The notes: generated by a model not told the origin, from the sequence alone. A DNA stretch of 24,000 nucleotides from an uncultured Desulfuromonadales bacterium (GCA_947259535.1 CAMYME010000032.1:18649-42648), one strand, 5' to 3'; positions 1 through 19,043 are shown, numbered from the stretch's first letter. A program made the numbers and translations.

Positions 1-294
1 CTCCTGCAGCAGGACAGCGCTCCGCAAATCTCCAACAGTCTGCTGGCCGATGGCGAGGCGGGCCTGTTCTGTTGGGACCGGAGCGCCCCGACAGTCACCG
101 ACAACCAGATTGTCCGTCAGCAGGAGGAGGGAATTTATCTTGGCCCCGAATGCCGGGCGAAGCTGACCGGCAACCTGATCGAGGCGGTCGATCGTGCCAT
201 CGTCCTGCCTCAGGATGCCGTCATTGACAGCAGTAATCGATTGCAGGCTAATCGGATCGACTTTGCATATTTCCGCCAGGAGGGGAGTCGATGA
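1..294 (+). CDS. C-terminal fragment of a parallel beta-helix (PbH1/NosD-like) repeat protein; the 5' end lies outside the window
   Basis: Frame +1 is open from base 1 to TGA at 292-294. It is absent from the ORF track because it has no start codon in the window. My translation (...TVTDNQIVRQQEEGIYLGPECRAKLTGNLIEAVDRAIVL...) has the same 'N-x-I ... G-I-x-L' periodicity as the next ORF. Its stop overlaps the next start (ATGA at 291-294). Confidence 0.5.
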   Translation, partial: LLQQDSAPQISNSLLADGEAGLFCWDRSAPTVTDNQIVRQQEEGIYLGPECRAKLTGNLIEAVDRAIVLPQDAVIDSSNRLQANRIDFAYFRQEGSR

Positions 295-1355
295 GACGTC
301 TGTTGCTGCTTGTGCTGCTGCTGTTGCCGGCGCCGACGTTTGCATTGCTTCACTACCAAGGGGAGACTTCGCTCTACGAAGATACCGTCTGGGAAGGGGA
401 GGTGCTGATTGACGGAATTCTGACGGTGGCGATGGGGACAACGCTTGAAATCCGCCCCGGAACGGTGGTCCGCTTTACCCGTTTCGACAGTAATTCTGAC
501 CAGATCGGCGAGCATGAGATCTTTATCCAGGGGCGCCTGCTGGCCCTTGGCAGCGCCGAGCAGCCGATCCTCTTCACCTCGGCGGAGACAAGCCCCCGGC
601 CGGGCGACTGGGGGGCGCTGAACATGATGATGAGCGAAGAGGACGGGAACCTGCTCGAACACTGCATCATCGAATACGGCTATCGCGGGTTCCATGCCCA
701 CTTTTCCAAGGGCGAGCTTCGCCACAGCCGGTTCCGCTTCAACCAGCGTGGCGCCCAATTTCAGGAATCTGAGGTTCGCATCGAAGACTGTGATTTCGTC
801 AACAACTTCAATGGTTTGCAGTTCAGAGACGCTACTGTCGCGCTGCTTAATTCCCGAATTCACGACAACCATTGGGGGGTGCGGGCGGTATTCGTCAATT
901 TGCGGATTGAAGGCTGTGAGATCACCGGCAACCGCGTTAACGGCATCAGCCTGCGCGACTCCGATTTCGTTATCGGCAACAACCTGCTGCGCGACAACCG
1001 CCGCGGACTCTATCTGCAGCGCAGCCGCGGGCGGGTGACAGAAAACCGGATTGTCGGGAACCGGGAACATGGCATCTATCTTGAAGATAGTATTGCCGAT
1101 CTGCAGGAAAACCTGCTGGCCGACAACGGACGATCCGGCCTGAAGGTACTAGATTCCGGTGGTGAAGTGATCGGCAATCGGTTTGACGGCAACCACCAGT
1201 TCACGCTGGTCAACGCGGGCGCGGATGATTTCTCCATCGGCGTCAATCAGCTCCCCCTGGTCGGCGCGGAGCTCCTTGACCAACAGGTCCGCCCCGAGCT
1301 CGGTCGGATCGTAGCGCCTGAACCGCTGAAGCGGGCAGCAACCACTGGCCATTAA
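291..1355 (+). CDS. Secreted right-handed parallel beta-helix repeat protein (NosD/CASH/PbH1-like)
   Basis: The 354-aa ORF has an AGGAGGGG Shine-Dalgarno just upstream. The N-terminus is a signal peptide (MRRLLLLVLLLLPAPTFA). It contains many ~22-aa repeats of the type 'I.GN...N...GI.L..S...I..N', for example ITGNRVNGISLRDSDFVIGNNLLRDNRRGLYLQRSRGRVTENRIVGNREHGIYLEDS. Confidence 0.75.
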   Translation: MRRLLLLVLLLLPAPTFALLHYQGETSLYEDTVWEGEVLIDGILTVAMGTTLEIRPGTVVRFTRFDSNSDQIGEHEIFIQGRLLALGSAEQPILFTSAETSPRPGDWGALNMMMSEEDGNLLEHCIIEYGYRGFHAHFSKGELRHSRFRFNQRGAQFQESEVRIEDCDFVNNFNGLQFRDATVALLNSRIHDNHWGVRAVFVNLRIEGCEITGNRVNGISLRDSDFVIGNNLLRDNRRGLYLQRSRGRVTENRIVGNREHGIYLEDSIADLQENLLADNGRSGLKVLDSGGEVIGNRFDGNHQFTLVNAGADDFSIGVNQLPLVGAELLDQQVRPELGRIVAPEPLKRAATTGH

Positions 1356-1377
1356 TTTTCGTATCGAGACAACGAGG

Positions 1378-2283
1378 TTGATTTTGTTTAGACGCAGACT
1401 CCTGATTCTTGCCCTGCTGCTGCCCCTGTTGCTATCCGCCTGTCAGACCCCGGCCGAGCGTCCGGTGATGAAGATCGGCTATATGAACTGCAACAGTGAA
1501 GAAGAGACCCAGAAGCGGTTCAAGCCGCTGACGAAATATCTGTCCGACACGCTGAACGTCGATTTTCAGGCGATTCCGGTCGACACCCAGGATTTCCCGG
1601 AGCGTTTCGCCGCCGGGGAGTTCGAGTTCACCCACACCAATTCGCTGGTTTACGTCATCATGCGCGAGAACCAGCAGATCGAGCTGGTGGCGACCGAAAA
1701 GCGCGGTAATTACGGCACCCACACCGCCGGGGCGATTATCGCCCGCAAGGGGAGCGGGATCGAAAAGCTGGAGGATATCAAGGGTAAGCGGATGATCTTC
1801 GGCCCGCAGCTGGCGCCGAGCGGCTTTCTCGCCCAGTACGACCTGATGCTGCGCGAAGGCCTCGACCCGGAACTGGACCTGGCTTACTACGCGATTCCGT
1901 CCGGCTCGTTCAAACATGAGAAGGTGGTCTACGGGGTCTACTTCGGCCAGTACGACGTCGGCGCTTCGCCGGCTCTTGATCTGGAGCTGATGACCAAGGA
2001 AGGCAAGATCACCGCTGACGATTTCGTCATCCTCGGCCAGAGCCCGATCTTTCCTTACTGCACCTTCGGCGCGCGCAAGGATGTCGATAAGGAACTGGTA
2101 GAAAAGTTCCGTCAGACCCTGGTCGCCCTGACCCATGACGACAGCGTCGAATATCAGGGGGAGAGCCTCAAAGTGCTGGCTTCGGCCTGGATCGATGGTT
2201 TCGAGGCGCTTGAAGACAGCGACTACAACCTGCTGCGGGAGATGGCCAAGCGGGCCAACATGCCGCCTTATCAGGAGTTTTAA
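1378..2283 (+). CDS. PhnD/SsuA-type periplasmic substrate-binding lipoprotein (phosphate/phosphonate-binding-protein fold), with no transporter partner in the window
   Basis: The 301-aa ORF has a signal peptide with a lipobox (LLLSAC). The body resembles the PhnD family (KIGYM...FKPL..YL...L...F...P..., GKRMIFG...S.SG). The start may be TTG 1378 or TTG 1384, and the latter is better spaced from GAGG. No ABC permease or ATPase is adjacent. Confidence 0.65.
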   Translation: MILFRRRLLILALLLPLLLSACQTPAERPVMKIGYMNCNSEEETQKRFKPLTKYLSDTLNVDFQAIPVDTQDFPERFAAGEFEFTHTNSLVYVIMRENQQIELVATEKRGNYGTHTAGAIIARKGSGIEKLEDIKGKRMIFGPQLAPSGFLAQYDLMLREGLDPELDLAYYAIPSGSFKHEKVVYGVYFGQYDVGASPALDLELMTKEGKITADDFVILGQSPIFPYCTFGARKDVDKELVEKFRQTLVALTHDDSVEYQGESLKVLASAWIDGFEALEDSDYNLLREMAKRANMPPYQEF

Positions 2284-2286
2284 TCT

Positions 2287-2826
2287 TTGCTCAAAGACCG
2301 TTTCGACATACTTCTCGGCTGCCTGCTGCTGGTCTGTACCGCGGTGATCGGCGCGCTGCTGCTCGGCGGCGGGTCCCTGGCGTCGCAGCGTGACCTGACG
2401 GTCGACAAGGCGCTCGAGCAGGAGATGGCCTACCAGGCCAAGGTCAGCTTTCTCGAACGGCTCTATGCGCCGGTGACCGAGCTGCGCGCCGACGGACAGA
2501 ACGAAGCGGCGCTGCTCAAGCTCGACGAGCTGTCGCGACGCTACCCGGATGAAGCCCACGGTGAGCTGCTGCGCGGTGAGATTCTCCTGCAGCTGAGCGC
2601 GATCCCGGAAGCGACCAGTCATCTGGCGCGCGCCGTGCGGATGAACGGCGACTATGTCGATCAGCACAGTCCGCTTTCGCGGCGTGAGCTGATCGACCGT
2701 CTGCTGGCAGAAAATCTAACCGGACTGAAACTGCGCGCCAGCAAGAACCCTGCGGCAAGCGGACTGCAGGCGGCGCTGAAAGATCTGTATTATCTTCAAG
2801 GGCGACTGGCCGGGGGCTGTGAGTGA
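2287..2826 (+). CDS. Hypothetical N-terminally membrane-anchored helical (TPR-like) protein
   Basis: The 179-aa ORF starts 3 nt after the previous stop. It has one N-terminal TM helix (ILLGCLLLVCTAVIGALLLGG) followed by an alpha-helical, Leu/Ala/Glu-rich soluble part. I recognise no family. Coding status is supported by tight operon packing and a stop that overlaps the next start. Confidence 0.5.
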   Translation: MLKDRFDILLGCLLLVCTAVIGALLLGGGSLASQRDLTVDKALEQEMAYQAKVSFLERLYAPVTELRADGQNEAALLKLDELSRRYPDEAHGELLRGEILLQLSAIPEATSHLARAVRMNGDYVDQHSPLSRRELIDRLLAENLTGLKLRASKNPAASGLQAALKDLYYLQGRLAGGCE

Positions 2827-3899
2827 TGCGTCTGGCGCTGCGTGATCCGCATACCTGGCTGGTAATGCTGGCCGGAGGGCTGCTGGGGTTGAGCGGCGTC
2901 TGGCTGGCGGTCCTCGGCAACCCGCAGAATTCCGGCATCTGCGTCTCCTGCTTTCTGGAGAACAGCGCCGGGGCGCTTGGTCTGCACGACAACGCCCGCA
3001 TGCAGTATCTGCGGCCGGAATTGATCGGTTTCGTGCTCGGTTCCTTTTTCGCCTCGCTCGGCTTCCGGGAATTCTCCTCCCGCGGCGGCAGCGCTCCTTT
3101 GCCGCGCCTGCTGGCCGGGGTGTTCCTGATCGTCGGCTGCTCGGTCTTTATCGGTTGTCCGATCAAACTGTTTTTACGTTTGGCGGCCGGAGATCTGACC
3201 ACCCTGACCGGCCTGGCCGGGCTGGTGGCCGGCGTCTGGCTGGGGCTCAAGGGACTGGCTGGCGGGGTGCATCTCGGCAGCGCGAACAAACAGCGCGGCG
3301 GCTCCGGCCTCTGGACACCGCTGCTGTTCGTGCTGATGCTGGTGTTTCTGCTGGTTCGGCCCGGCTTTGTTCTCTTCTCTGAGCGCGGCAGCGCGGCGGA
3401 GGCGGCGCCGATGTTGATCGCGCTGGTGATCGGCCTGGTGATCGGGGCGCTGGCGCAACGGACCCGCTTCTGCATCACCGGCAGTCTGCGCGACCTGTTT
3501 ATCATGGGCACCCGCGCGCAGCTGTTCTGGGGTTTTTCGGTCTTTCTTCTGCTCGCTTTCGGCGGTTCGTATCTGACCGGTAATTTCACCCCCGGTCTTT
3601 ACGGTCAGCCGGGTGCGCACCTAGACCTGCTCTGGAGCTTTCTCGGCATGCTGCTGGTCGGGTCGGTTTCGGTACTGATCGGTGGCTGCCCGTTCCGCCA
3701 GCTGATCAAGGCCGGAGAAGGGGATGCCGACGCCGGACTGGTAGTCGTTGGCATGTTCATCGGCGCCGGGCTGGTGCAATCCTGGCAGATCGCCGGGACG
3801 GCGGCCGGGGTGTCGCTTTACGGCAAAGTGGCGGTGGTCGCCGGGTTGGCATTCTTCCTGCTGAATTTGCTGATGTTTCGTGAACGTTCCGCCAGTTGA
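2823..3899 (+). CDS. yedE: YedE-family polytopic membrane protein of the subfamily associated with selenium metabolism (putative Se/S transporter)
   Basis: The 358-aa protein is very hydrophobic, with about 9-10 TM helices. It carries paired Cys motifs as I recall for the selenium-type YedE subfamily: GICVSCF, FIGCPIK, RTRFCITGSLRD and GGCPFRQLIKAGEGD. The GTG 2823 / ATG 2826 start overlaps the upstream TGA (2824-2826). Confidence 0.75.
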   Translation: MMRLALRDPHTWLVMLAGGLLGLSGVWLAVLGNPQNSGICVSCFLENSAGALGLHDNARMQYLRPELIGFVLGSFFASLGFREFSSRGGSAPLPRLLAGVFLIVGCSVFIGCPIKLFLRLAAGDLTTLTGLAGLVAGVWLGLKGLAGGVHLGSANKQRGGSGLWTPLLFVLMLVFLLVRPGFVLFSERGSAAEAAPMLIALVIGLVIGALAQRTRFCITGSLRDLFIMGTRAQLFWGFSVFLLLAFGGSYLTGNFTPGLYGQPGAHLDLLWSFLGMLLVGSVSVLIGGCPFRQLIKAGEGDADAGLVVVGMFIGAGLVQSWQIAGTAAGVSLYGKVAVVAGLAFFLLNLLMFRERSAS

Positions 3900-4240
3900 T
3901 GGCGTTGCATCTGAAAGGGTCGGTTTTGTCGTTATTACAAAGAAATCCGGAAATTGTCTGGCGGCGTGAAAAACGGCGCGAAGAACAGGTGCTCAAAGAG
4001 CTGGAGGAGGGGGGCGAGGTCGCAGAGCGCGGCACGGTGATCCTGCTGATCTCCGGCATGATGCATCAGCTGAACCTGTTGGGCGGCATGATCTGGGATC
4101 TGTGCGACGGCAGCCGCAGCCAGGCGCAGGTGGTCGACCAGCTGCTTGAAGAGTTCGACGTCGAGCGCGCTGAACTCGAAACCGATGTCGCCGAGTTTAT
4201 CGACGACCTGCTGCAACGAGGCTGGCTGATCCATGGTTGA
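3896..4240 (+). CDS. PqqD-family protein (RiPP recognition element / peptide chaperone)
   Basis: The ORF is 113-114 aa. It shows the classic PqqD pattern: NPEIVWRRE...GTVILLISGMMHQLNLLGGMIWDLCDGSRSQAQVVDQLLEEFDVERAELETDVAEFIDDLLQRGWLI. The ATG at 3899 overlaps the yedE TGA (3897-3899). Confidence 0.85.
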   Translation: MMALHLKGSVLSLLQRNPEIVWRREKRREEQVLKELEEGGEVAERGTVILLISGMMHQLNLLGGMIWDLCDGSRSQAQVVDQLLEEFDVERAELETDVAEFIDDLLQRGWLIHG

Positions 4241-5237
4241 TATGACGACCGAACAATTTTCCGCGCCCCTGACTTTCAACTGGACGCTCTCCTATCGCTG
4301 TAACTTCAGCTGCAGCCACTGCTACAGCCGCGACGAGGTGGCCGAAGAGCTTCCGACCGAGCAGATCAAGCAGGTTGTCGATGTGCTCGCCAGGCAGCAG
4401 GTGCCGTTTATCAACTTTGGCGGCGGGGAGCCGCTGATCCGCAACGACCTGCTGGAGATCACCCGCTATGCAACAGCCGAGGGGCTGAACGTCTCGATGA
4501 ACTCCAACGGCTGGCTGCTCGATTATGCCACCGCCCAGGAGCTGAAAGAGGCCGGCTTCAAGAGTGTCGGTATCAGCATCGACAGTGCAACCGGCGCTTC
4601 GCACGACGAGTTCCGCAACATGCCGGGCTCTTTCGAAAAAGCGACCGCCGCCCTGGATGCGCTGCACGCCGCCGGCGTCAGAACCACCATGAGCTCGGTT
4701 ATCTCCAGGATTAACTTCAGGGAATTTCACGCGCTGCTCGATCTGGCCCGCGAACATCATGTGGAACAGGTTTACCTGCACAACTTCAAGTGCAGCGGCC
4801 GCGGCTTCAAAAATCGCGAAGATCTGGACCTGACTCCGCAGGAGTGGAAGGATTTCTACCTCGAGGCGCTTCAGGTCAAGAACGAGACCAAGGACCTGCT
4901 GATCTCCTTCGACGATCCGGTGATCGCCTCATTGCCCGGCTATCAGGATGACTCGCTGGTCAAGGGGAGCAGCTGCGGCAAGTTGTCCCTGCACCTGCGC
5001 CCCAATGGCGACATCACCCCTTGCGGGTTCATTCCATTGGTGGTTGGTAATATTTTGTCAGATGATTTTGAGGATCTATGGTACAATTCCCCTGTTTTAA
5101 CCGCGATGCGCAACAAGGAAGCCAAAGGGAAATGCCAGGGCTGCGGCTCCTACCAGGATTGTCTTGGTGGTTGCACCGCCCGGGCCTTTGCTACCACCGG
5201 CGACCTGAGCGAGCCTGATCCTCATTGTTGGAAATAG
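4233..5237 (+). CDS. Radical SAM / SPASM-domain peptide-modifying enzyme
   Basis: The 334-aa protein has the CxxxCxxC cluster motif (CNFSCSHCYS) and a GGGEPL SAM-binding motif. Its C-terminus has a complete SPASM signature: CGKLSLHLRPNGDITPC, then CQGCGSYQDCLGGC, then a terminal PHC. The start (ATG 4233 or 4242) overlaps or abuts the PqqD stop at 4240. Confidence 0.9.
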   Translation: MVDMTTEQFSAPLTFNWTLSYRCNFSCSHCYSRDEVAEELPTEQIKQVVDVLARQQVPFINFGGGEPLIRNDLLEITRYATAEGLNVSMNSNGWLLDYATAQELKEAGFKSVGISIDSATGASHDEFRNMPGSFEKATAALDALHAAGVRTTMSSVISRINFREFHALLDLAREHHVEQVYLHNFKCSGRGFKNREDLDLTPQEWKDFYLEALQVKNETKDLLISFDDPVIASLPGYQDDSLVKGSSCGKLSLHLRPNGDITPCGFIPLVVGNILSDDFEDLWYNSPVLTAMRNKEAKGKCQGCGSYQDCLGGCTARAFATTGDLSEPDPHCWK

Positions 5238-5272
5238 CCGTTGAAAGTCTCTTTTAACCCGCACAATCGATT

Positions 5273-5277
5273 GGAGG
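5273..5277 (+). promoter_or_regulatory. Shine-Dalgarno (GGAGG) for the 18-codon ORF
   Basis: A perfect GGAGG lies 7 nt upstream of ATG 5285. Confidence 0.6.
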
Positions 5278-5284
5278 TGTCAGC

Positions 5285-5341
5285 ATGAAGAAGTACATGA
5301 AGCCCCGGGTGGTCGGTTCCTCTAACGTTCACCCCTGCTAA
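5285..5341 (+). CDS. Unannotated 18-aa ORF, MKKYMKPRVVGSSNVHPC; candidate precursor peptide for the flanking PqqD/rSAM-SPASM enzymes
   Basis: Hand translation runs from ATG 5285 to TAA 5339-5341. A consensus SD sits at optimal spacing. The ORF lies in the only sizeable gap (5238-5398) of an otherwise gap-free operon, between two maturase paralogs. It is followed 8 nt later by a perfect hairpin. It is too short for the ORF track. Nothing else in the sequence tests whether it is coding. Confidence 0.55.
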   Translation: MKKYMKPRVVGSSNVHPC

Positions 5342-5349
5342 ACGGAACT

Positions 5350-5383
5350 GGGGGGGCAGGTAACTGCCCCCCCAATTCTTTTT
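5350..5383 (+). terminator. Intra-operon intrinsic-terminator-like hairpin (probable partial terminator or transcript-stabilising element)
   Basis: GGGGGGGCAG (5350-5359) pairs perfectly with CTGCCCCCCC (5364-5373). The loop is a GTAA (GNRA-type) tetraloop, and AATTCTTTTT follows (5374-5383). The hairpin sits 8 nt after the small-ORF stop and 15 nt before the next ATG. Confidence 0.65.
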
Positions 5384-5398
5384 CGAGCGAGTTCATTT

Positions 5399-6346
5399 AT
5401 GGCTGTTGACCTGTTGGATGCCCCGCTACGGATCAGTTGGGATCTCTGCCCTGCTGGACAATCCCCACTTTCGAATAACCAACTGCTGCAGGTCGCGAGG
5501 CAGCTGGGCGAGGCCGGTATTTTTTTCGTCACGCTGGAAGACTCCCCGTTAAGGCATCCGCAGATCGGCGAGCTGTTGCAGGAGCTGACCTCGGGCGGTT
5601 GCCAGGTCGCCCTGGTGACTGACGGCTCTGGTGCCGAGCGTGCGGTGCTTGCGCAACTGGAGAGCCAATTCGCGTTGTTTGTCGATGCCGCCAGTTGCAT
5701 TGAAAACCGACGATTGAACGCCGATCTCCTCGGCGAGGTGTTCAGCGAGATCCGCCAGCACCATGCGGAGCCAGCGCTACTCTGGATGCCGAAGCCAGGT
5801 CAGCTGGCTTTGTTGCCGGAATTATTGGTCTTCTGCGCCCGTTGGCAGGTCAGTCATTTTAAGTTGCCAAACCAGAAGATCGGTGCTAATTGTGAAAATT
5901 CCTCAATGCAGACTCTGCCCGACTGTGATGATCTCGACCGGTTGGCAGCGCTGCTCGCGTCTGCAGGCCTGCCTGAGGTTGCTGGTTTGCAGCTGGAAGT
6001 GCACGACCTGTTTATCTGGGAATTGCTGCAGCCGTTGACCGGCGGGCAGAGAAGCGAGTACGGTGGATGTCAGGCGGCCAACAGCCTGGGGCACATCAGC
6101 GGCCAGGCTGAGCTCTGGCCCTGCTCCTCCTGGCCGGAACCGCTCGGTTCCCTGCTGAACGAAGATCTCCTCGATCTCTGGCAGTCGCCGCAGCGGCTGA
6201 AGGTTCGCGAGGAGATCGCCCGACTGCCGCTCGGTTGTGACGGTTGCCGTGACTTCCAGGTCTGTTTCGGCGGCTGTCGCGGCCTTTCCCGCTTCTGCCG
6301 GGACGATGGCCTGGAGCGTGATCTGCTCTGTCGGGAGCGGCGCTGA
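5399..6346 (+). CDS. SPASM-domain protein; a degenerate radical-SAM paralog lacking the CxxxCxxC and GGE motifs
   Basis: The 315-aa N-terminus aligns by eye with the rSAM enzyme (APLRISWDL- versus APLTFNWTLSYRCNFSCSHCYS; FFVTLEDSPL versus FINFGGGEPL), but the SAM-cluster cysteines are deleted. The C-terminus retains the SPASM cysteines: GGCQAANSLGHISGQAELWPC, then CDGCRDFQVCFGGC, then later Cys residues. Confidence 0.8.
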   Translation: MAVDLLDAPLRISWDLCPAGQSPLSNNQLLQVARQLGEAGIFFVTLEDSPLRHPQIGELLQELTSGGCQVALVTDGSGAERAVLAQLESQFALFVDAASCIENRRLNADLLGEVFSEIRQHHAEPALLWMPKPGQLALLPELLVFCARWQVSHFKLPNQKIGANCENSSMQTLPDCDDLDRLAALLASAGLPEVAGLQLEVHDLFIWELLQPLTGGQRSEYGGCQAANSLGHISGQAELWPCSSWPEPLGSLLNEDLLDLWQSPQRLKVREEIARLPLGCDGCRDFQVCFGGCRGLSRFCRDDGLERDLLCRERR

Positions 6347-6355
6347 AAGAACGGT

Positions 6356-7519
6356 TTGATGAGCGATTTGATTTACCTCGATAATGCTGCCACCAGTCAT
6401 CCCAAGCCGGAAGCCGTCTACCGGGCGGTAGAAGACGCCATGCGCATGGGCGCCAGCCCGGGCCGCGGCGGACATCAGCAGGCGCTGTCGGCCGAACGGT
6501 TGGTGTTTGAAACCCGGGAGACACTCGCCAATTTTTTCAACGCCGAGGACTCCGAACAGTTCATCTTTGCTGCCAATGCCACCATGGCGATCAACCAGGC
6601 CCTGTTCGGTATATTGGAGTCCGGCGACCGGGTGGTGACCACCAGCCTGGAGCATAACGCCGTCGCGCGGCCTTTGCGGGCACTGCAGGAGCGCGGCGTC
6701 AGGGTCGAAAAGGTCGCTGCCGGGCCGGATGGGGTCGTTGCCGCTGAAGCGTTGAAAGAATCCTGTCTGGCAGAGAAAACCAGGCTGCTGGTTGTCAATC
6801 ACTGCTCGAATGTCTATGGCGCCCTGCAGCCGATCGAAGGGCTGGGAAACTGGTGCCGTGAACAGGGCATTCTGTTTATGGTTGATGGCTCGCAGAGCGC
6901 CGGTTATTTCCCCATCGATTTTCAGGCTTTGGCTGTCGATCTGTTCGCAGCTCCCGGCCATAAAGGTCTGCTCGGGCCGCAGGGGACCGGTTTTTTGTAT
7001 GTGCGCAAGGGGTTGCAGCTGACCCCATTAATCTATGGCGGCACAGGCGCGAACTCCGGTTCCGACCTGCCTCCCGAGCATCTCCCAGAGCGACTCGAAT
7101 GCGGCACCCTGAACACCCCTGGTCTTGGCGGACTGAAGGCGGCGCTTGAGTTTTTGCAGGGAGTTGGCGTAGAACAGGTTCGCAAGCATGAGCTGCAGGC
7201 GATCAATAGAATATTGAATGGGCTCGGCAACATCGAAGCTGTAACCCTCTACGGGCCGGAATCTGCGACACAGCGCGGCACCGCCATCTCTTTCAATCTG
7301 CAGGGGCGTGATCCGTCCGAGGTCGGTTTCTTACTCGACCAGCAGTATAACATCAGCCTGCGGGTCGGCCTGCATTGCGCCCCCGACGCTCATCGCAGCA
7401 TCGGGACCTATCCGCTGGGAACAGTGCGGGTGAGCCCCGGCTATTTCACCACGGAATCTGAAATCGACACTTTCCTTGGCGCGATTCGTGACCTTGCTCA
7501 CAACCGCGCTAAAAGCTGA
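6356..7519 (+). CDS. Class-V aminotransferase-fold PLP enzyme; cysteine desulfurase / selenocysteine lyase family
   Basis: The ORF is about 386 aa, and the likely start is ATG 6359. The N-terminus is IYLDNAATSHPKP...GASPGRGGH. The PLP-lysine motif is APGHKGLLGPQGTGFLY. The active-site Cys lies in RVGLHCAPDAH. It starts 10-13 nt after the SPASM gene. Confidence 0.8.
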   Translation: MMSDLIYLDNAATSHPKPEAVYRAVEDAMRMGASPGRGGHQQALSAERLVFETRETLANFFNAEDSEQFIFAANATMAINQALFGILESGDRVVTTSLEHNAVARPLRALQERGVRVEKVAAGPDGVVAAEALKESCLAEKTRLLVVNHCSNVYGALQPIEGLGNWCREQGILFMVDGSQSAGYFPIDFQALAVDLFAAPGHKGLLGPQGTGFLYVRKGLQLTPLIYGGTGANSGSDLPPEHLPERLECGTLNTPGLGGLKAALEFLQGVGVEQVRKHELQAINRILNGLGNIEAVTLYGPESATQRGTAISFNLQGRDPSEVGFLLDQQYNISLRVGLHCAPDAHRSIGTYPLGTVRVSPGYFTTESEIDTFLGAIRDLAHNRAKS

Positions 7520-7547
7520 CTGGCAGATTCTCAAAAGGAATGCGATA

Positions 7548-7820
7548 ATGAGATCAATAACCCGCTCTCTCCCGGTTCTGATGGTCCTGGTGTTTCTGCT
7601 CTCCTGTTCATTACCGCCCGAACAGCCGGTGACCCGGAAGATGCTTAAAGCGTCGGGTGTTTATCGCACCTTCAAAATCGAAGAGTCACCGGAAGAGCTG
7701 CTCAATGCTCTCAATGTCGAGGGTGAGGTGGTGATAAAGGCGCTTGAGAGCAACAGGCCGGTTTTCGTCAAGATCCTGGCGACCGCCGAAGGGCTGCAGG
7801 TCACCACCTACGACCGCTGA
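7548..7820 (+). CDS. Small hypothetical lipoprotein
   Basis: I prefer ATG 7548 (with AAAGGAA upstream) to the track start at 7476. It gives MRSITRSLPVLMVLVFLLSC, a signal peptide plus lipobox. The protein is 90 aa and I recognise no family. Confidence 0.5.
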   Translation: MRSITRSLPVLMVLVFLLSCSLPPEQPVTRKMLKASGVYRTFKIEESPEELLNALNVEGEVVIKALESNRPVFVKILATAEGLQVTTYDR

Positions 7821-7870
7821 AACAAAATTGAGGTAACTTCTGTCAACTCTAGAATGAAGGCTGCGATGCG

Positions 7871-9187
7871 ATGAAAAATTATGTTCTGGATACCAATGTC
7901 CTGCTGCATGATCCTCAAGCGATTTTTAAATTTTCCGACAATAACGTTATTATTCCGCTGACCGTCATCGAAGAGATCGATCGGTTTAAAAAGGAACAGA
8001 GTGAAACCGGCCGCAACGCCCGCCAGATCTCCCGGATGGTCGACGAATTCCGCGCCCACAACAGCCTGGTCGAAGGGGTTCCGCTGGAAAGCGGCGGGAC
8101 GCTGAAAGTCGCCATTTACCGCGAGGAATTCCTGAAGAAATTGCCGCCGGAGTTGCGCGTCGACCGTGGCGACAACCGGATCCTGGCGGTCGCTAAAGAT
8201 CTGGAGGAGAACCTGCCGGAAGGTTCGGTTTTCTTTATCACCAAGGACATCAACCTGCGCATCAAGGCCGATACCATCGGCATGATCGCCGATGATTACC
8301 TGAACGACAAGATTGCCATCGACGATCTTTACACCGGGACCACTGAGCTGCATGTCGATCGTGACGCGGTCGACCTGTTTTTCGAGCAGGGCTATCTCGA
8401 CCTTGAGGAAGAGTATAATTCGAATCAGGGAATTACCCTGATCGATGCGGGGAACCCATCTCATTCGGCGATCGGCCGTTACGATGCCCTGAACCAGCGC
8501 CTGACCACTCTGCTGCGGGTGCCCAAGGAAGGGGTCTGGGGGATTCATCCGCGCAATCGCGAGCAACAGTTCGCCTTCGACTTGCTGCTCAACGACGACA
8601 TCCAACTGGTCTCGCTGGTCGGCAAGGCGGGCACCGGGAAAACCCTGCTGGCGATCGCTGCCGGGTTGTTCAAGACCGCCGATGAAAGCATCTACAGCCG
8701 GCTGCTGGTTTCCCGCCCGGTCTTCCCCATGGGTCGCGACCTCGGGTTCCTGCCCGGCGACGTCGAGGAAAAGCTGGCACCCTGGATGCAGCCGATATTC
8801 GATAATGTCGAGCTGCTGCTGTCCAGTGTCGAGGAGGGTGGCAAGCGCAAGCGTGGCTATCGTGAATTGATCGATCTCGGCCTGATGGAAATCGAGCCGC
8901 TGACCTATATTCGTGGTCGCTCCATCCCGCGGCAGTACATGATTGTCGACGAAGCGCAGAACTTGACACCGCACGAAATCAAAACCATTATTACCCGCGC
9001 CGGGGAGGGGACCAAGATCGTCCTGACCGGCGACCCGTACCAGATCGATAATCCCTACGTCGATTCTTCGAGCAACGGCCTGACCTATGCGGTCGAGCGG
9101 CTCAAAGGGCAGGAGATTGCCGGTCACATGACGTTAAGCAAAGGCGAACGTTCCTCCCTGGCGGAATTGGCGGCAAACCTTCTCTAG
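7871..9187 (+). CDS. PIN-domain / PhoH-like ATPase fusion protein (PhoH2/YlaK type)
   Basis: The 438-aa protein has an N-terminal PIN signature (YVLDTNVLLHDP...IIPLTVIEEID). It also has PhoH Walker A (GKAGTGKT) and Walker B-like (IVDEAQNLT) motifs and the C-terminal GDPYQID motif. Confidence 0.85.
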   Translation: MKNYVLDTNVLLHDPQAIFKFSDNNVIIPLTVIEEIDRFKKEQSETGRNARQISRMVDEFRAHNSLVEGVPLESGGTLKVAIYREEFLKKLPPELRVDRGDNRILAVAKDLEENLPEGSVFFITKDINLRIKADTIGMIADDYLNDKIAIDDLYTGTTELHVDRDAVDLFFEQGYLDLEEEYNSNQGITLIDAGNPSHSAIGRYDALNQRLTTLLRVPKEGVWGIHPRNREQQFAFDLLLNDDIQLVSLVGKAGTGKTLLAIAAGLFKTADESIYSRLLVSRPVFPMGRDLGFLPGDVEEKLAPWMQPIFDNVELLLSSVEEGGKRKRGYRELIDLGLMEIEPLTYIRGRSIPRQYMIVDEAQNLTPHEIKTIITRAGEGTKIVLTGDPYQIDNPYVDSSSNGLTYAVERLKGQEIAGHMTLSKGERSSLAELAANLL

Positions 9188-9204
9188 CTCAGAATTGCAT
9201 TTCG

Positions 9205-10224
9205 ATGTTGTTATTAGCCCTGGAAAGCTCCTGTGACGAAACCGCCGCTGCGGTTGTTCGTGACGGCACCGCTGTTCTCTCCAACCTGATCGCTTCGCAG
9301 GCCGATCTGCACGCCGTTTATGGCGGCGTCGTACCCGAGCTGGCATCTCGACGTCACCTTGAAGTGATCAATCCGCTGGTCGAAGCGGCGCTCAATCAGG
9401 CCGATGTCACTCAGGGCGACCTCGATGGCGTGGTGGTGACACGTGGTCCCGGACTGATCGGGGCACTGCTGGTCGGACTTTCGTTTGCCAAGGCCTTCGC
9501 CTATGCCCGTCAGATTCCGTTGGTCGGGGTTCACCACATCGAGGGGCACATCCTTGCCATCCAACTGGAAAAAAAGGTCGAATATCCCTTCCTGGCCGCT
9601 GCGGTCTCCGGAGGGCATACCCATCTGTTTCGGGTCGATGGTATCGGCCAGTACCGGCTGCTGGGACGGACGGTGGATGACGCTGCCGGTGAGGCCTTCG
9701 ATAAGGTCGCCAAGATGCTCAAGCTTGGTTATCCCGGTGGCCCGATTATTGACAAACTGGCTTCCAGCAGTGACGACGGCGGAATCGTCTTCCCCAGGCC
9801 GATGCTGAAAAAAGAGAATTACGATTTCAGTTTTTCCGGCATGAAGACCGCTGTGCTCAATTATCTCCACTCGCTAACCGGTGAGCCGGACGAGCGGCAG
9901 ATCGCACAAATCTCCGCAGCCTTTCAGACCGCCGTGGTCGATGTGCTGACGAAAAAAGCGCTGCGCGCCGCCGCAGCCGAAGGGCTGAACCGGATTGTCG
10001 TTGCTGGCGGAGTGGCCTGCAACAGCGGTTTGCGCCGTCGTTTCGCAGAGCTTGCCGAGCAAAACCAGCTCGAGGTGCATTTCCCTTCACCGATCCTCTG
10101 TGCCGATAATGCGGCCATGCTCGCAGTGGCAGGGGAGCACTATCTGACCCAGGGTTTCCGCTCTGGCCTCGACCTCAACGCTGTTTCTAGCTGGCCGCTG
10201 GAGCAGGCCGCCTGTTTCCCCTGA
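9205..10224 (+). CDS. tsaD: tRNA N6-adenosine threonylcarbamoyltransferase
   Basis: The 339-aa protein has LALESSCDETAAAV at the N-terminus, the VGVHHIEGH metal-binding motif and the GGVACN motif. Its length is typical of TsaD (Gcp/YgjD). Confidence 0.9.
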   Translation: MLLLALESSCDETAAAVVRDGTAVLSNLIASQADLHAVYGGVVPELASRRHLEVINPLVEAALNQADVTQGDLDGVVVTRGPGLIGALLVGLSFAKAFAYARQIPLVGVHHIEGHILAIQLEKKVEYPFLAAAVSGGHTHLFRVDGIGQYRLLGRTVDDAAGEAFDKVAKMLKLGYPGGPIIDKLASSSDDGGIVFPRPMLKKENYDFSFSGMKTAVLNYLHSLTGEPDERQIAQISAAFQTAVVDVLTKKALRAAAAEGLNRIVVAGGVACNSGLRRRFAELAEQNQLEVHFPSPILCADNAAMLAVAGEHYLTQGFRSGLDLNAVSSWPLEQAACFP

Positions 10225-10240
10225 GTCGAAGTGAAACACT

Positions 10241-10738
10241 ATGTGGCGGCGATGGGGCTTTTTTCGGCAGTTCAAACTTAACCTGATAAGACTGATCCGC
10301 CTGCGCGCCGAACCGGATGCCGTTGCTCGTGGCATGGCGCTGGGGCTGTTCATCGGCATGACCCCGACTTTCGGGGTGCAGATGGGCATCGCACTGTTCT
10401 TTGCTTTTCTGTTGCGCCAGAATAAAATTGCCGCCCTGATCGGGGTGTGGAACACCAACCCGCTAACCGCTCCATTTATTTACGGACTGGAGTACGAAGT
10501 CGGCCGGGTTCTGCTGGGCATTGCTCGTCCATACAACCTGGATGCCTTTACCTACGAGGCTTTAACTGAACTCGGCTGGCAGGTGCTTGCCCCGCTCTGC
10601 CTGGGCAGCCTGGTTCTGGGGATTCCGGTCGCGGCGATCGGATACGCCTTGACGGTTCGCTTTGTCCCGGTCATGCGTCAGTGGCGGATTCCCCGCTGGC
10701 CGCGACGCCGCCAGGAAGATATCTCCTCTGATGAATAA
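10241..10738 (+). CDS. DUF2062-family small membrane protein
   Basis: The 165-aa ORF contains the pattern P..VA.G.ALG.FIG.TP..G.Q...A......R.NK.AA..GVW..NP.T, which I recall for DUF2062. It has 3-4 TM segments. Confidence 0.6.
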   Translation: MWRRWGFFRQFKLNLIRLIRLRAEPDAVARGMALGLFIGMTPTFGVQMGIALFFAFLLRQNKIAALIGVWNTNPLTAPFIYGLEYEVGRVLLGIARPYNLDAFTYEALTELGWQVLAPLCLGSLVLGIPVAAIGYALTVRFVPVMRQWRIPRWPRRRQEDISSDE

Positions 10739-11540
10739 TTCCCGCTACCGGACAAAAAAACGTTTCGGCCAGCATTTCCTGCATGACCGTTCAGTCATTG
10801 ACCGGATCGTTGCCGCGGCCCGTATCGAGGCTGAGCACGAAGTGGTTGAAATCGGCCCCGGATTAGGCGTGCTGACCGACGAACTGCTGCCGCGCGCGGC
10901 CCGGGTTCATGTCATGGAGATCGACCGCGACCTGATCGAACGCCTTGAGGCGCGGGATGATGAGCGGCTTACCGTACATGCCGGCGATGTCCTCAAGCTT
11001 CCCTGGCAGCAGTGCCTGCCTGACCCGCCCTATACCCTGGTGGCCAACCTGCCTTACAACATTTCCAGCCAGATCGTTTTTCGGCTGCTCGACCACCGTC
11101 CGTTGTTCCGGCGCATGGTGCTGATGTTTCAGCGCGAGGTTGGAGAACGCCTGGTCGCGGCTCCCGGCGGCAAAGATTACGGAATCCTCTCGGTGCTCTG
11201 TCAGCTCTGGTACGAGATTCGCGTCGTCACCCTGGTCAAGCCGGGCGCCTTTAACCCGCCGCCGAAAGTCGATTCGATCGTCCTTGATTTCCTGCCCCTG
11301 GAACAACCTCGGGTCGATCCGGTTGATGAAGCGTTTTTTGTGAAGGTTGTCAAGGCTGCATTTACCCAGCGGCGCAAAACCCTGCGAAACAGTCTGCAGG
11401 CCGGAGGATTTCCTGCAGCGCAGATCGCTGCCGCCTTGCCACAGGCCGGCATCGACCCCGGCTGTCGCGGTGAGACCCTGACGCTGGCCGATTTTTCCCG
11501 TCTGGCCAAATCCCTGTTCCATTTCCAGAAAAATAAATAA
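10731..11540 (+). CDS. rsmA: 16S rRNA (adenine1518/1519-N6)-dimethyltransferase
   Basis: I prefer ATG 10731 (MNNSRYRTKKRFGQHFL...), which overlaps the upstream stop by 8 nt. The SAM-binding motif is VVEIGPGLGVLT, and NLPYNISS is also present. The protein is about 269 aa. Confidence 0.9.
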   Translation: MNNSRYRTKKRFGQHFLHDRSVIDRIVAAARIEAEHEVVEIGPGLGVLTDELLPRAARVHVMEIDRDLIERLEARDDERLTVHAGDVLKLPWQQCLPDPPYTLVANLPYNISSQIVFRLLDHRPLFRRMVLMFQREVGERLVAAPGGKDYGILSVLCQLWYEIRVVTLVKPGAFNPPPKVDSIVLDFLPLEQPRVDPVDEAFFVKVVKAAFTQRRKTLRNSLQAGGFPAAQIAAALPQAGIDPGCRGETLTLADFSRLAKSLFHFQKNK

Positions 11541-17087: not shown

Positions 17088-17400
17088 AAATTCAGAATCG
17101 GCACCGAATGCCGCCGTCTCATGAAAAGGTGGTGGACAAGTAAAACAGCGGTATGATATACCGTAAACGCTTTTTTGCGGGGCTGCATCACTTTGTGAGC
17201 CTCAAGCACGTGAGCAGGCCGGCTGGCCCGGGACAGGTACCGGAGCCGAGAATCTGACTTGCTTGCGTCTGCGACATACCGCCTGGATCTCATGGGACCG
17301 GGACGGAAGGTGAGCAGTTTTTCAGGGGAATCCCTGAGGTTTAGGAATGCCTTCCGTTTTAGCGCGGTGGGCATTTTTTGTTAAAGGCAGGAAAATACAA

Positions 17401-18147
17401 GTGAAAAAGCGCAAGACAATCCTCGATATCGGACAGCTGAAGGAGCAGGGCGAGAAGATCACGGTCCTGACCGCGTACGATTATCCTTTCGCCAAATTGA
17501 TGGATCAGGCCGGCATCGATATGATCCTGGTCGGCGACTCGGTCGGCTCGGTGGTCTCCGGCTACGAGAACACCCTGCCGGTCACCCTCGACGAAATGAT
17601 CTACCACACCCGCGCGGTTGTCCGCGGCAGCGAGCAGGCGCTGGTGATCACCGATATGCCGTTCATGTCCTATCAGACCGATATCCGCGACGCCCGACTC
17701 AATGCCGGCAGGTTGATCAAGGAAGGCGCGGCCCAGGCGGTCAAGCTGGAAGGCGGCGAGCATATCGCCGAGACGATCCGGGCGATCGTCGACATCGACA
17801 TCCCGGTGGTCGGGCACATCGGCCTGACACCCCAGTCGATCCACCGCATGGGCGGCTTCAAGGTGCAGGGGCGTCAGGAAGGCGTGGTACTCGAAGGGAT
17901 CCCGCGCGACCTCGCCAAGGAAGTGACCGAGTCTCTCAGCATTCCGACCATCGGCATCGGCGCCGGGGTCGACTGCGACGGCCAGGTGCTGGTGATCCAC
18001 GACATCCTCGGCCTGTGCGACAAATACTCCCCCAAGTTCGTCAAACGCTACGCCGACGTCTCCGGAACCATTTCTGCGGGGATCGGCGAGTATATCCGTG
18101 AGGTCAAGGCCGGCGAGTTTCCGACCCTTGACCACTCCTTCAAGTAA
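17401..18147 (+). CDS. panB: 3-methyl-2-oxobutanoate hydroxymethyltransferase (ketopantoate hydroxymethyltransferase); appears internally shortened
   Basis: Family motifs are present: [31 protein letters not shown] and [19 protein letters not shown] prefer GTG 17401 (VKKRKTILD..., preceded by AGGCAGGA) over ATG 17347, which lies inside a leader hairpin. See the finding on a missing ~19-aa segment after KVQGR. Confidence 0.8.
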
Positions 18148-18151
18148 GCCC

Positions 18152-19003
18152 ATGGACACCATCACTTCTGTCGCCGAGATGCAGCAGCGCTCTCTGGCCG
18201 CCAGGGCGGCCGGTCAGCGGATTGCCTTCGTGCCGACCATGGGCTTTCTACACCAGGGGCATCTGTCACTGCTCGAAGCGGGGCGCAAGCGTGGCGATCT
18301 GCTGGTGCTGTCGATCTTCGTCAACCCGACCCAGTTCGGCCAGGGGGAGGACTATGAGGACTACCCCCGCGACCTGCAGCGCGACGCCGATCTTGCCCGG
18401 TCAGCCGGGGTCGATATCATCTTCGCGCCGACCGCCGGGGAGATGTATCCCAAGGGGTACGCGACCTACGTCGATGTCGAAGGGATCACCGAGATCCTCT
18501 GCGGCGCCAGCCGTCCCGGCCATTTCCGCGGTGTCACCACCGTGGTCAATAAGCTGTTCAACATCGTCCAGCCGGATGTCGCGCTGTTCGGCAACAAGGA
18601 TTTTCAGCAGTTGGCGGTGATCCGGCGGATGACCATTGATTCGAACCTGCCGGTTGAGATCCTCGGTATGCCGATCTTTCGCGAGGCGGACGGCCTGGCG
18701 ATGAGCTCGCGCAATGTCTACCTGTCGCCGGAGCAGCGCCAGCAGGCGTTGGTGCTCTCAAAGTCGCTTGCTGAAGCCAGGCGCCTGGTCGCAGCCGGCG
18801 AAAACGATTGTGCCGCGATTATCGCCGCGCTGCGTGAAATGATCAGCCGCCAGCCGGAGGCGCGGATCGATTACCTGCAGATCTGCCACCAGCTCAGTCT
18901 GCAGCCGCAGGCGCAGGTCGATCGCGACTCGGTGCTGCTGCTGGCGGTTTTCGTCGGCAAAACCCGTCTCATCGACAATGGCTTTCTGCGCGATGCGACC
19001 TGA
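18152..19003 (+). CDS. panC: Pantoate--beta-alanine ligase (pantothenate synthetase)
   Basis: The protein is 283 aa from ATG 18152, 4 nt after the panB stop. It has the PTMGFLHQGHLSL (HxGH) motif, FVNPTQFG and FGNKDFQQ. Confidence 0.9.
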   Translation: MDTITSVAEMQQRSLAARAAGQRIAFVPTMGFLHQGHLSLLEAGRKRGDLLVLSIFVNPTQFGQGEDYEDYPRDLQRDADLARSAGVDIIFAPTAGEMYPKGYATYVDVEGITEILCGASRPGHFRGVTTVVNKLFNIVQPDVALFGNKDFQQLAVIRRMTIDSNLPVEILGMPIFREADGLAMSSRNVYLSPEQRQQALVLSKSLAEARRLVAAGENDCAAIIAALREMISRQPEARIDYLQICHQLSLQPQAQVDRDSVLLLAVFVGKTRLIDNGFLRDAT

Positions 19004-19043
19004 CCCATTGCCGAGTCGCTAGCGGCAACCAACCCGGTATCTC

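Follow-up and report, generated by a model that had tools for sequence, protein, structure and literature searches.

The stretch of DNA analyzed here, hereafter the window, comprises 24,000 nucleotides (nt) of one strand from an uncultured Desulfuromonadales bacterium (GCA_947259535.1 CAMYME010000032.1:18649-42648), and all coordinates are positions within it unless a locus number is given. Its first 7.8 kb form a single tightly packed run of genes on the + strand, which includes a radical S-adenosylmethionine (SAM)/SPASM enzyme of the GeoRSP family, a PqqD-type protein and, directly behind the enzyme gene, an 18-codon gene whose product we propose as the candidate substrate of a peptide maturation pathway coupled to chalcogen uptake. 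The features of this run are the following.

1-294, + strand: 3' end (partial) of a gene for a NosD-like beta-helix protein; open frame with its stop codon at 292-294.
291-1355, + strand: secreted NosD-like right-handed beta-helix protein of 354 amino acids (aa), with an N-terminal signal-like sequence (PF13229, 76 bits; PF05048, 65.8 bits).
1378-2283, + strand: PhnD-like periplasmic oxyanion-binding lipoprotein (PF12974, 178.8 bits; lipobox LLSAC).
2287-2826, + strand: membrane-anchored tetratricopeptide repeat (TPR)-like protein of 179 aa, with a weak TPR_16 match.
2826-3899, + strand: YedE-family putative selenium transporter (TIGR04112); alternative GTG start at 2823.
3899-4240, + strand: PqqD-type peptide-binding protein, a recognition element (RRE) of ribosomally synthesized and post-translationally modified peptide (RiPP) pathways (PF05402, 65.8 bits); alternative TTG start at 3896.
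4233-5237, + strand: GeoRSP radical SAM/SPASM enzyme (TIGR04303; PF04055 and PF13186).
5286-5342, + strand: 18-codon candidate precursor-peptide gene, MKKYMKPRVVGSSNVHPC followed by a stop; Shine-Dalgarno GGAGG at 5273-5277.
5349-5385, + strand: GC-rich hairpin and T-run (terminator or attenuator), 6 nt past the peptide stop codon.
5399-6346, + strand: pseudo-radical-SAM/SPASM paralog (TIGR04304 as best match, below its cut-off).
6359-7519, + strand: class-V pyridoxal 5'-phosphate (PLP) enzyme of the cysteine desulfurase/selenocysteine lyase family (TIGR01977); alternative TTG start at 6356.
7548-7820, + strand: small lipoprotein of 90 aa (lipobox LLSC), with no family match.

The initial annotation of this DNA had described six translationally coupled genes at 2823-7519. 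The junctions it quoted are real: the stop of the TPR gene overlaps the YedE ATG (2826) in a TGATG at 2824-2828, another TGATG, at 3897-3901, combines the stop of YedE with the start codon of PqqD (ATG at 3899), the PqqD and radical SAM genes share 8 nt (4233-4240), and the paralog and desulfurase genes nearly touch, separated by 9 nt from the TTG at 6356 or by 12 nt from the ATG at 6359. The coupling is nevertheless interrupted at the small open reading frame (ORF), which lies 48 nt from the radical SAM gene and 56 nt from the paralog gene, the second gap containing the hairpin. Furthermore, the proposed limits were too narrow, as the coupled block starts upstream, with four more tightly joined genes connected by an ATGA overlap (1-294/291), a 22-nt gap, a 3-nt gap and the TGATG overlap into YedE. 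Since the first of these four genes is partial, the operon runs off the 5' end of the window. The translation of 1-291 shares 65% identity with the C-terminal end of a NosD-like protein of 264 aa from the closest relative (locus L056), where the NosD-like gene is preceded by a gene for a small OpuAC-like protein and by that for an NtrC-type sigma-54-dependent response regulator (L056, 173-1546), ahead of the operon. No strict -24/-12 match to a sigma-54 promoter was found upstream in the relatives, including the 236-nt gap after the L056 regulator, and neither known RNA elements nor tRNAs were found in the window.

The small ORF, which had been listed among several hallmarks of the locus, is its most informative element and was underrated at the time. 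Eighty loci with relatives of the radical SAM enzyme were retrieved from species-representative genomes, making 81 with the window, and the ORF is present directly 3' of the radical SAM gene in 54 of them (53 plus the window). It takes the form M-K-K-(x0-2)-Y-x-K-P-x-V-V-G-S-S-x-V-H-P-C-stop, with Y4, K6, P7, H16, P17, C18 and the stop invariant among 52 distinct DNA versions, and in the window the GGAGG site stands 8 nt ahead of its ATG. The mean minor-allele fraction at codon positions 1, 2 and 3 is 0.086, 0.078 and 0.39, compared with 0.49 and 0.58 in the 30-nt flanks, and this concentration of substitutions at third codon positions indicates purifying selection on the protein. The micro-ORF is a real and strongly selected gene. 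None of three peptide versions matched an NCBIfam model, even at E=10, and ten exact 20-residue versions were all absent from a collection of 15 billion proteins, which indicates that ordinary gene calling misses the peptide, including the copies beside cytochrome genes described below.

Approximately 170 members of the peptide family across 1.7 Mb of retrieved loci end in Cys-stop, with one exception. The stop follows the Cys codon directly, and TGA, TAA and TAG are all used. Selenocysteine recoding of the peptide was considered and rejected: every canonical copy has TGC or TGT as its final sense codon, and because the stop codon varies among the three forms, the peptide does not end in selenocysteine. 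The exception is found in L116, where tandem peptide genes (5967-6014 and 6393-6434), spaced at about 420 nt, have a hairpin each; the second copy, MKYVKPMIVGSGNVHPY, ends in VHPY, with Tyr for Cys, the sole such case among the roughly 170 copies.

The family extends beyond GeoRSP loci. A degenerate pattern at the DNA level, encoding Y-x-K-P-(7 residues)-V-H-P-C-stop, has one match in the window and none in shuffles, and scanning metagenomes with it retrieved at least 120 contigs (L081-L200). A GeoRSP radical SAM gene lies just upstream of the peptide gene in 18 of 120 contigs; another 55 contain at least 1.3 kb of upstream sequence without one, and 47 are too short to be classified. Shine-Dalgarno-like sites stand ahead of 113 of the 115 metagenomic copies considered. 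The orphan copies lie mostly behind large multihaem cytochrome genes with CxxxxCH/CxxCH motifs (34 loci, e.g., L187, L096, L157 and L183) and often ahead of genes for secreted proteins of the CarboxypepD_reg/DUF4198-like or NosD-like kind. In L198 the genes behind the peptide encode, in this order, a CarboxypepD_reg-like protein, the substrate-binding protein (SBP), the TPR protein and YedE. Additionally, a gene for a B12-binding radical SAM protein (best match HpnJ/ApyD-like) adjoins orphan peptide genes in L083 (4674-6235), L134 and L175, and this enzyme may be an alternative or additional maturase for the orphan peptides.

The hairpin behind the peptide gene has an 11-bp stem at 5349-5374 with nine GC pairs, followed by a T-run, and is the strongest terminator-like site in positions 1-9300. 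A hairpin of differing sequence is found behind most orthologous peptide genes, and a strong one lies downstream of 74% of the metagenomic copies. It would give peptide transcript in excess of enzyme transcript. The same arrangement, a hairpin and T-run immediately past the stop in the window and most loci, together with conserved residues spread along a short nascent chain that ends in Pro-Cys-stop, could also belong to a leader or arrest peptide, on which a ribosome paused at the last codons would melt the hairpin and allow read-through to the paralog and desulfurase genes. We regard such a role as highly improbable. The next gene is convergent in at least 10 orphan loci (clusters c14-, c4- and c29-), hence a leader there would lack a target; the peptide is also found in unrelated contexts, the adjacent PqqD gene would be left unexplained, and the chain offers a single Cys codon only, no search for an alternative antiterminator having been made.

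The enzyme in front of the peptide gene passes the GeoRSP radical SAM model TIGR04303 (452.7 bits versus a cut-off of 400), with residues 10-333 aligned to model positions 2-325 of 325 in the NCBIfam scan. The runner-up models are AhbD (208 bits), MftC (199.2 bits, full length, residues 8-333) and then NirJ, and the nearest solved sequence is PqqE (6c8v, E=3.5e-20). It carries the motif C23-x3-C27-x2-C30 plus a 7-Cys SPASM domain and has 687 homologs, the best 120 of which are 71-88% identical. For the PqqD protein, the best model is the GeoRSP model TIGR04302, which it misses by 6 bits (94.3 versus a cut-off of 100), and it passes TIGR03859, of the type belonging to pyrroloquinoline quinone (PQQ) biosynthesis (53.9 versus 46). 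These hidden Markov model (HMM) matches, together with the reality of the micro-ORF, bear out the hallmarks of a peptide or cofactor pathway that the initial annotation had recognized, namely an RRE/PqqD protein, a radical SAM enzyme with a full SPASM domain and a tiny ORF. The label "GeoRSP system" that it used was also apt, since the radical SAM enzyme passes TIGR04303 and the source databases name the homologs in this way; the best HMM matches of PqqD, the radical SAM enzyme and the paralog are uncharacterised GeoRSP families and not characterised ones. Searches of the literature for GeoRSP, for TIGR04303 and for radical SAM, PqqD and Geobacter combined returned no relevant publication. GeoRSP is a catalogued but unstudied family of hundreds of members, to which the window cassette belongs through its radical SAM enzyme, being divergent in its paralog.

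As had been proposed, the second SPASM protein is catalytically degenerate: the CX3CX2C motif of the SAM cluster is absent, and the alignment contains seven invariant SPASM cysteines. Its best match is TIGR04304 over the full length (101.6 bits versus a cut-off of 300), a model that the Geobacter paralog passes (343.5 bits), so that Geobacteraceae loci appear to be the basis of the GeoRSP models. The AlphaFold (AF2) model of the protein (predicted local distance difference test 83.9, predicted template modeling score 0.87) was superposed by Foldseek along its full length on SuiB, PqqE, anSME and SkfB, which indicates a complete pseudo-radical-SAM enzyme and not merely a SPASM domain. Position, predicted fold and the seven conserved cysteines support its orthology to the GeoRSP SPASM protein. 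Its best homologs are 40-67% identical, versus 71-88% for those of the radical SAM enzyme, and it therefore evolves much faster. The window keeps the GeoRSP order (TIGR04302/04303/04304) of PqqD, radical SAM/SPASM enzyme and SPASM paralog, with the peptide gene inserted before the paralog; whereas the catalogued system consists of three proteins and no peptide, the Desulfuromonadales form adds the peptide gene and a desulfurase.

The closest functional parallels are mycofactocin and PQQ biosynthesis. MftC decarboxylates the terminal Tyr of MftA. Like the mycofactocin system (MftA, the RRE MftB and MftC), the window combines a short conserved precursor bearing a reactive last residue with a separate PqqD-like RRE, a radical SAM enzyme that aligns over its full length with the MftC model and a cofactor-like invariant core. 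However, the MftC score lies below the model's cut-off of 265, the window peptide ends in VHPC instead of Gly-Val-Tyr (GVY), and in place of mftD-, mftE- or mftF-like genes, for which there was no match among 20 window ORFs scanned against NCBIfam, there are a pseudo-radical-SAM paralog and an envelope uptake module. The PQQ pathway (PqqA, PqqD and PqqE) is resembled in the small precursor gene followed by a hairpin, in the PqqD protein that passes TIGR03859 and in PqqE as the nearest solved structure; nevertheless, the PqqE model gave 127.7 bits versus a cut-off of 381, the peptide lacks Glu-x3-Tyr, and no pqqB- or pqqC-like match was found among the operon proteins scanned. By analogy, then, the cassette would work like mycofactocin or PQQ biosynthesis, yet it does not qualify as a member of either.

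A third parallel comes from the "selenobiotic" thio(seleno)oxazole RiPPs, in which the radical SAM/SPASM maturase SbtM acts on Cys or selenocysteine of a small peptide (Lewis et al. 2021, cited in PMC13188914). The two systems have in common a radical SAM/SPASM enzyme paired with a small peptide, a related group of anaerobes and a selenium connection. They differ in that TIGR04082 (cut-off 350) is not among the 25 best families of the window enzyme, the weakest of which scores 77.7 bits, and in that the window-type peptide never has UGA replacing its Cys codon, the selenium link coming from neighboring genes and not from a selenocysteine codon.

This neighborhood was quantified in the 49 loci that are flanked on either side by 4.5 kb or more, 32 in a close group and 17 distant. 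YedE and PqqD are present in 49 of 49, the PhnD-like binding protein in 48, the NosD-like protein in 46, the TPR protein in 43, the SPASM paralog in 42, the desulfurase in 34 and the peptide in 33. In Desulfuromonadales the order is NosD-like protein, SBP, TPR, YedE, PqqD, radical SAM, peptide, paralog and desulfurase; in Geobacteraceae it is NosD-like protein, PqqD, radical SAM, paralog, SBP, TPR and YedE; and in the distant loci, including metagenome-assembled genomes (MAGs) labelled Rokuibacteriota, Nitrospirae and Deferrisomatales, it is SBP, one further gene, YedE, NosD-like protein, PqqD and radical SAM. The retention of YedE, the binding protein and the NosD-like protein through such rearrangement argues for a functional tie with the PqqD-radical SAM pair. 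The earlier expectation that YedE would remain with the trio is upheld in the rearranged Geobacteraceae loci and in the Nitrospirae- and Rokuibacteriota-labelled MAGs. An MFS (major facilitator superfamily) transporter gene just upstream of PqqD in L061, a MAG labelled Nitrospirae (5377-6678), is the only candidate exporter seen in GeoRSP loci.

The statement that the trio is bracketed by two sulfur- or selenium-related families consequently holds for YedE and only in part for the desulfurase, whose occurrence is patchy and whose link to the cassette is less secure. The PLP enzyme passes TIGR01977 (446.5 bits versus 377) and has the group-II type motif RVGLHCA. The SclA selenocysteine lyase of Enterococcus faecalis carries the corresponding group-II NifS-like motif RxGxHCA (bioRxiv 10.1101/2020.02.07.939272), and the window enzyme is like it in family and motif, although the SclA-specific model NF040779 was not reached (316.7 bits versus a cut-off of 525). 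Within the close group the desulfurase is present in 32 of 32 loci, as are PhoH2, TsaD and RsmA, and it occurs in only 2 of the 17 distant full-flank loci. Such counts, and the terminator-like hairpin between the radical SAM part and the desulfurase, are what would be seen if the desulfurase were a housekeeping Fe-S supplier kept in place by vertical synteny, with YedE and the binding protein forming an unrelated adjacent uptake operon. We find this combination very unlikely, because YedE and the binding protein accompany the PqqD-radical SAM pair through at least three gene orders in several phyla, YedE overlaps PqqD in a TGATG, and the desulfurase follows the paralog again in the distant loci L059, L060, L062, L112 and L127. 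The 90-aa lipoprotein is also found in two of these (L112 and L127, in the order desulfurase, lipoprotein, TsaD); since it keeps its place behind the desulfurase in distant loci, it may belong to the system, although its membership is uncertain.

In the envelope-related genes, YedE belongs to the selenium-linked subfamily TIGR04112 (393.4 bits versus a cut-off of 200, residues 14-346), as in the YedE/YedF and YeeE/YeeD (TsuA/TsuB) uptake pairs. Unlike in those pairs, the window-type YedE is always preceded by the PhnD-like binding protein and by a TPR protein whose C-terminal Cys is conserved, and a scan of the operon proteins found no YedF-, TusA- or SirA-like partner. The binding protein weakly matches TIGR04553, the model of a putative selenate binding protein, as well as the TtrS sensor domain, and its ABC (ATP-binding cassette) partner genes are not present. 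The TPR gene always lies between the binding-protein and YedE genes, and the C-terminus of its product, R-[LFM]-A-G-G-C-E-stop (codons 2803-2826; RLAGGCE in the window), is strictly conserved in 62 loci with 60 distinct DNAs, while the tail codons show free synonymous change. With this tail the operon has a second conserved terminal-cysteine motif, which may act in a chalcogen relay to YedE. The TIGR04112 subfamily is nearly confined to organisms that contain SelD and often lies beside genes of the selenocysteine lyase family (PMC5322559), which makes selenium the leading candidate for the imported species.

Taken together, we consider it on balance probable, if only narrowly, that the window carries the 3' portion of a single operon made up of a cytoplasmic and an envelope module, and that the cytoplasmic module carries out an MftC/PqqE-like, cofactor-type maturation of the peptide at its C-terminal VHPC, coupled to the uptake of a chalcogen. 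We infer that the peptide is the substrate, which chemistry it undergoes and that sulfur or selenium is involved, the binding and modification steps being modeled on PqqD-type proteins, MftC and PqqE. The PqqD-type protein would hold the 18-residue precursor by its N-terminal Y-x-K-P-x-V-V-G stretch, and the GeoRSP enzyme would modify the invariant C-terminal Val-His-Pro-Cys-COOH. As a first guess, hydrogen abstraction at the terminal Cys would lead to oxidative decarboxylation, because Cys is always last and a terminal Tyr is what the closest characterized full-length relative decarboxylates; as a second guess, VHPC would acquire an intramolecular S-C cross-link. The cluster-less paralog would act as a scaffold for Fe-S clusters or as a partner in electron transfer, and the enzyme of the selenocysteine lyase family would supply sulfur or selenium or rebuild clusters. 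In the envelope, the NosD-like proteins, the oxyanion-binding lipoprotein, the AGGCE-ending TPR protein and YedE would capture and import the chalcogen species. The product would be a conserved cofactor- or carrier-like molecule and not a variable antibiotic, given that the core is invariant across phyla and that no protease, exporter or immunity genes were found among the operon proteins of the window that were scanned; an antimicrobial RiPP is unlikely for the same reasons.

Several observations weigh against this model. No peptide gene lies within 7 kb in 27 of the 81 loci, including all those of Geobacteraceae; motif searches, small-ORF lists and a six-frame HMM search found none in these 27. 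In the Geothermobacter-like loci L028, L032, L035, L037, L041 and L048 the peptide gene and its hairpin are gone and the paralog begins 7-34 nt past the radical SAM gene, the remaining operon being intact. Conversely, the peptide-bearing loci L061, L068, L069 and L073 contain neither the SPASM paralog nor the desulfurase, and 55 of the 73 classifiable metagenomic copies have no GeoRSP radical SAM gene upstream, so that the peptide need not depend on this enzyme. As to the chalcogen, neither selD nor yedF was found in the same scan of 20 window ORFs, and the NosD-like, Fer4_5 and DsbD/NicO-like neighbors suit metal handling equally with chalcogen handling. Apart from these objections, the Geobacteraceae loci show a further peculiarity: a gap of 600-680 nt separates the paralog from the binding-protein gene (L071, 8865-9546; L074, 8834-9488; L076, 8933-9541; L080, 8858-9281), and no conserved small ORF was seen within it.

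The absence of an adjacent peptide in Geobacteraceae and Geothermobacter-like loci, the preponderance of orphan metagenomic copies and the presence of AhbD and NirJ among the best HMM matches would all agree with an enzyme that acts, together with PqqD, on a tetrapyrrole-like compound (as AhbD and NirJ do) or on another protein, the peptide being a small protein in its own right, for instance a chalcogen carrier based on Cys, that only happens to be encoded at this position. We judge this quite unlikely, as a PqqD/RRE partner is characteristic of enzymes with peptide substrates and, in GeoRSP loci with a peptide, the peptide gene is always directly behind the radical SAM gene. Moreover, the peptide type covaries with the enzyme clade: the 18-aa "MKKYxKP" type accompanies the Desulfuromonadales enzymes, and a 19-20-aa "MKKxxYxKP" type accompanies most of the enzymes that are 55-62% identical (L053, L061, L068, L069, L073 and L109), with the exception of L054, whose 62%-identical enzyme is paired with the 18-aa form. 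Peptide-modifying systems also commonly have remote or multiple precursor genes.

The envelope neighbors bear on another alternative, in which the mature peptide, with His and Cys as ligands, is exported and handles copper or another metal together with NosD-like proteins and cytochromes, while YedE and the binding protein supply sulfur and selenium plays no part. NosD-like proteins head the operon (46/49 loci), and the distant and Geobacter loci contain further envelope proteins, namely CarboxypepD_reg-like (or DUF4198-like), HEAT, Fer4_5 (NosR/NapH-like), DsbD_2/NicO-like and ResB-like proteins; the orphan peptides, as described above, lie behind multihaem cytochrome genes and ahead of NosD-like or CarboxypepD_reg proteins. 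Nevertheless, nosZ, nosL, nosFY and an exporter were not found in the window's operon (the MFS gene being confined to L061), the peptide has no signal sequence, and the YedE subfamily follows the use of selenium and not of metals (PMC5322559). We therefore hold the metal alternative to be unlikely as a whole. Sulfur instead of selenium, or a metal-chalcogenide role hinted at by the NosD-like and cytochrome neighbors, is compatible with the preferred model of maturation coupled to chalcogen uptake.

Four aspects of this model are new: a candidate substrate, the actual size of the system, a second terminal-cysteine motif and a wider family of orphan peptides. GeoRSP, a named radical SAM family for which the searchable literature offers neither substrate nor product, now has a candidate substrate, and a near-invariant, unannotated peptide of 18 residues makes both the orphan enzyme family and the YedE question accessible to a simple test by heterologous expression and mass spectrometry. 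YedE, long a "putative selenium transporter" lacking a mechanism, gains defined partners in the binding protein, the TPR protein with its C-terminal Cys and the peptide. The terminal Cys, the MftC-like enzyme and the obligatory YedE module suggest a third peptide-derived cofactor or carrier after PQQ and mycofactocin, and perhaps the first with a link to selenium trafficking. A more far-reaching proposal, which we put forward tentatively as possible rather than probable, is that the VHPC peptide is the missing GeoRSP substrate and the precursor of a new cofactor or carrier that depends on imported selenium or sulfur for its formation or function; it would occur widely among anaerobic bacteria of sediments and have a functional link to NosD-like proteins and extracellular multihaem cytochromes.

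The remainder of the window consists of housekeeping genes according to family scans (PhoH2, TsaD, RsmA, PanB, PanC, PanP, an amidohydrolase and an RseC-like protein). An ORF of 1587 aa had no NCBIfam match and is taken by us to be an NAD-glutamate dehydrogenase; another ORF is presumably SmpB. In the pantothenate cluster (17347-20711), PanB and PanC are accompanied by the PLP-dependent aspartate decarboxylase PanP (TIGR03799, 902 bits) in place of the pyruvoyl PanD. The rsmA ORF (10662-11540), read from a TTG start, overlaps the preceding ORF for a 165-aa membrane protein (10241-10738) by 77 nt, and as the RsmA model matches from residue 30 only, the true rsmA start is probably further downstream.

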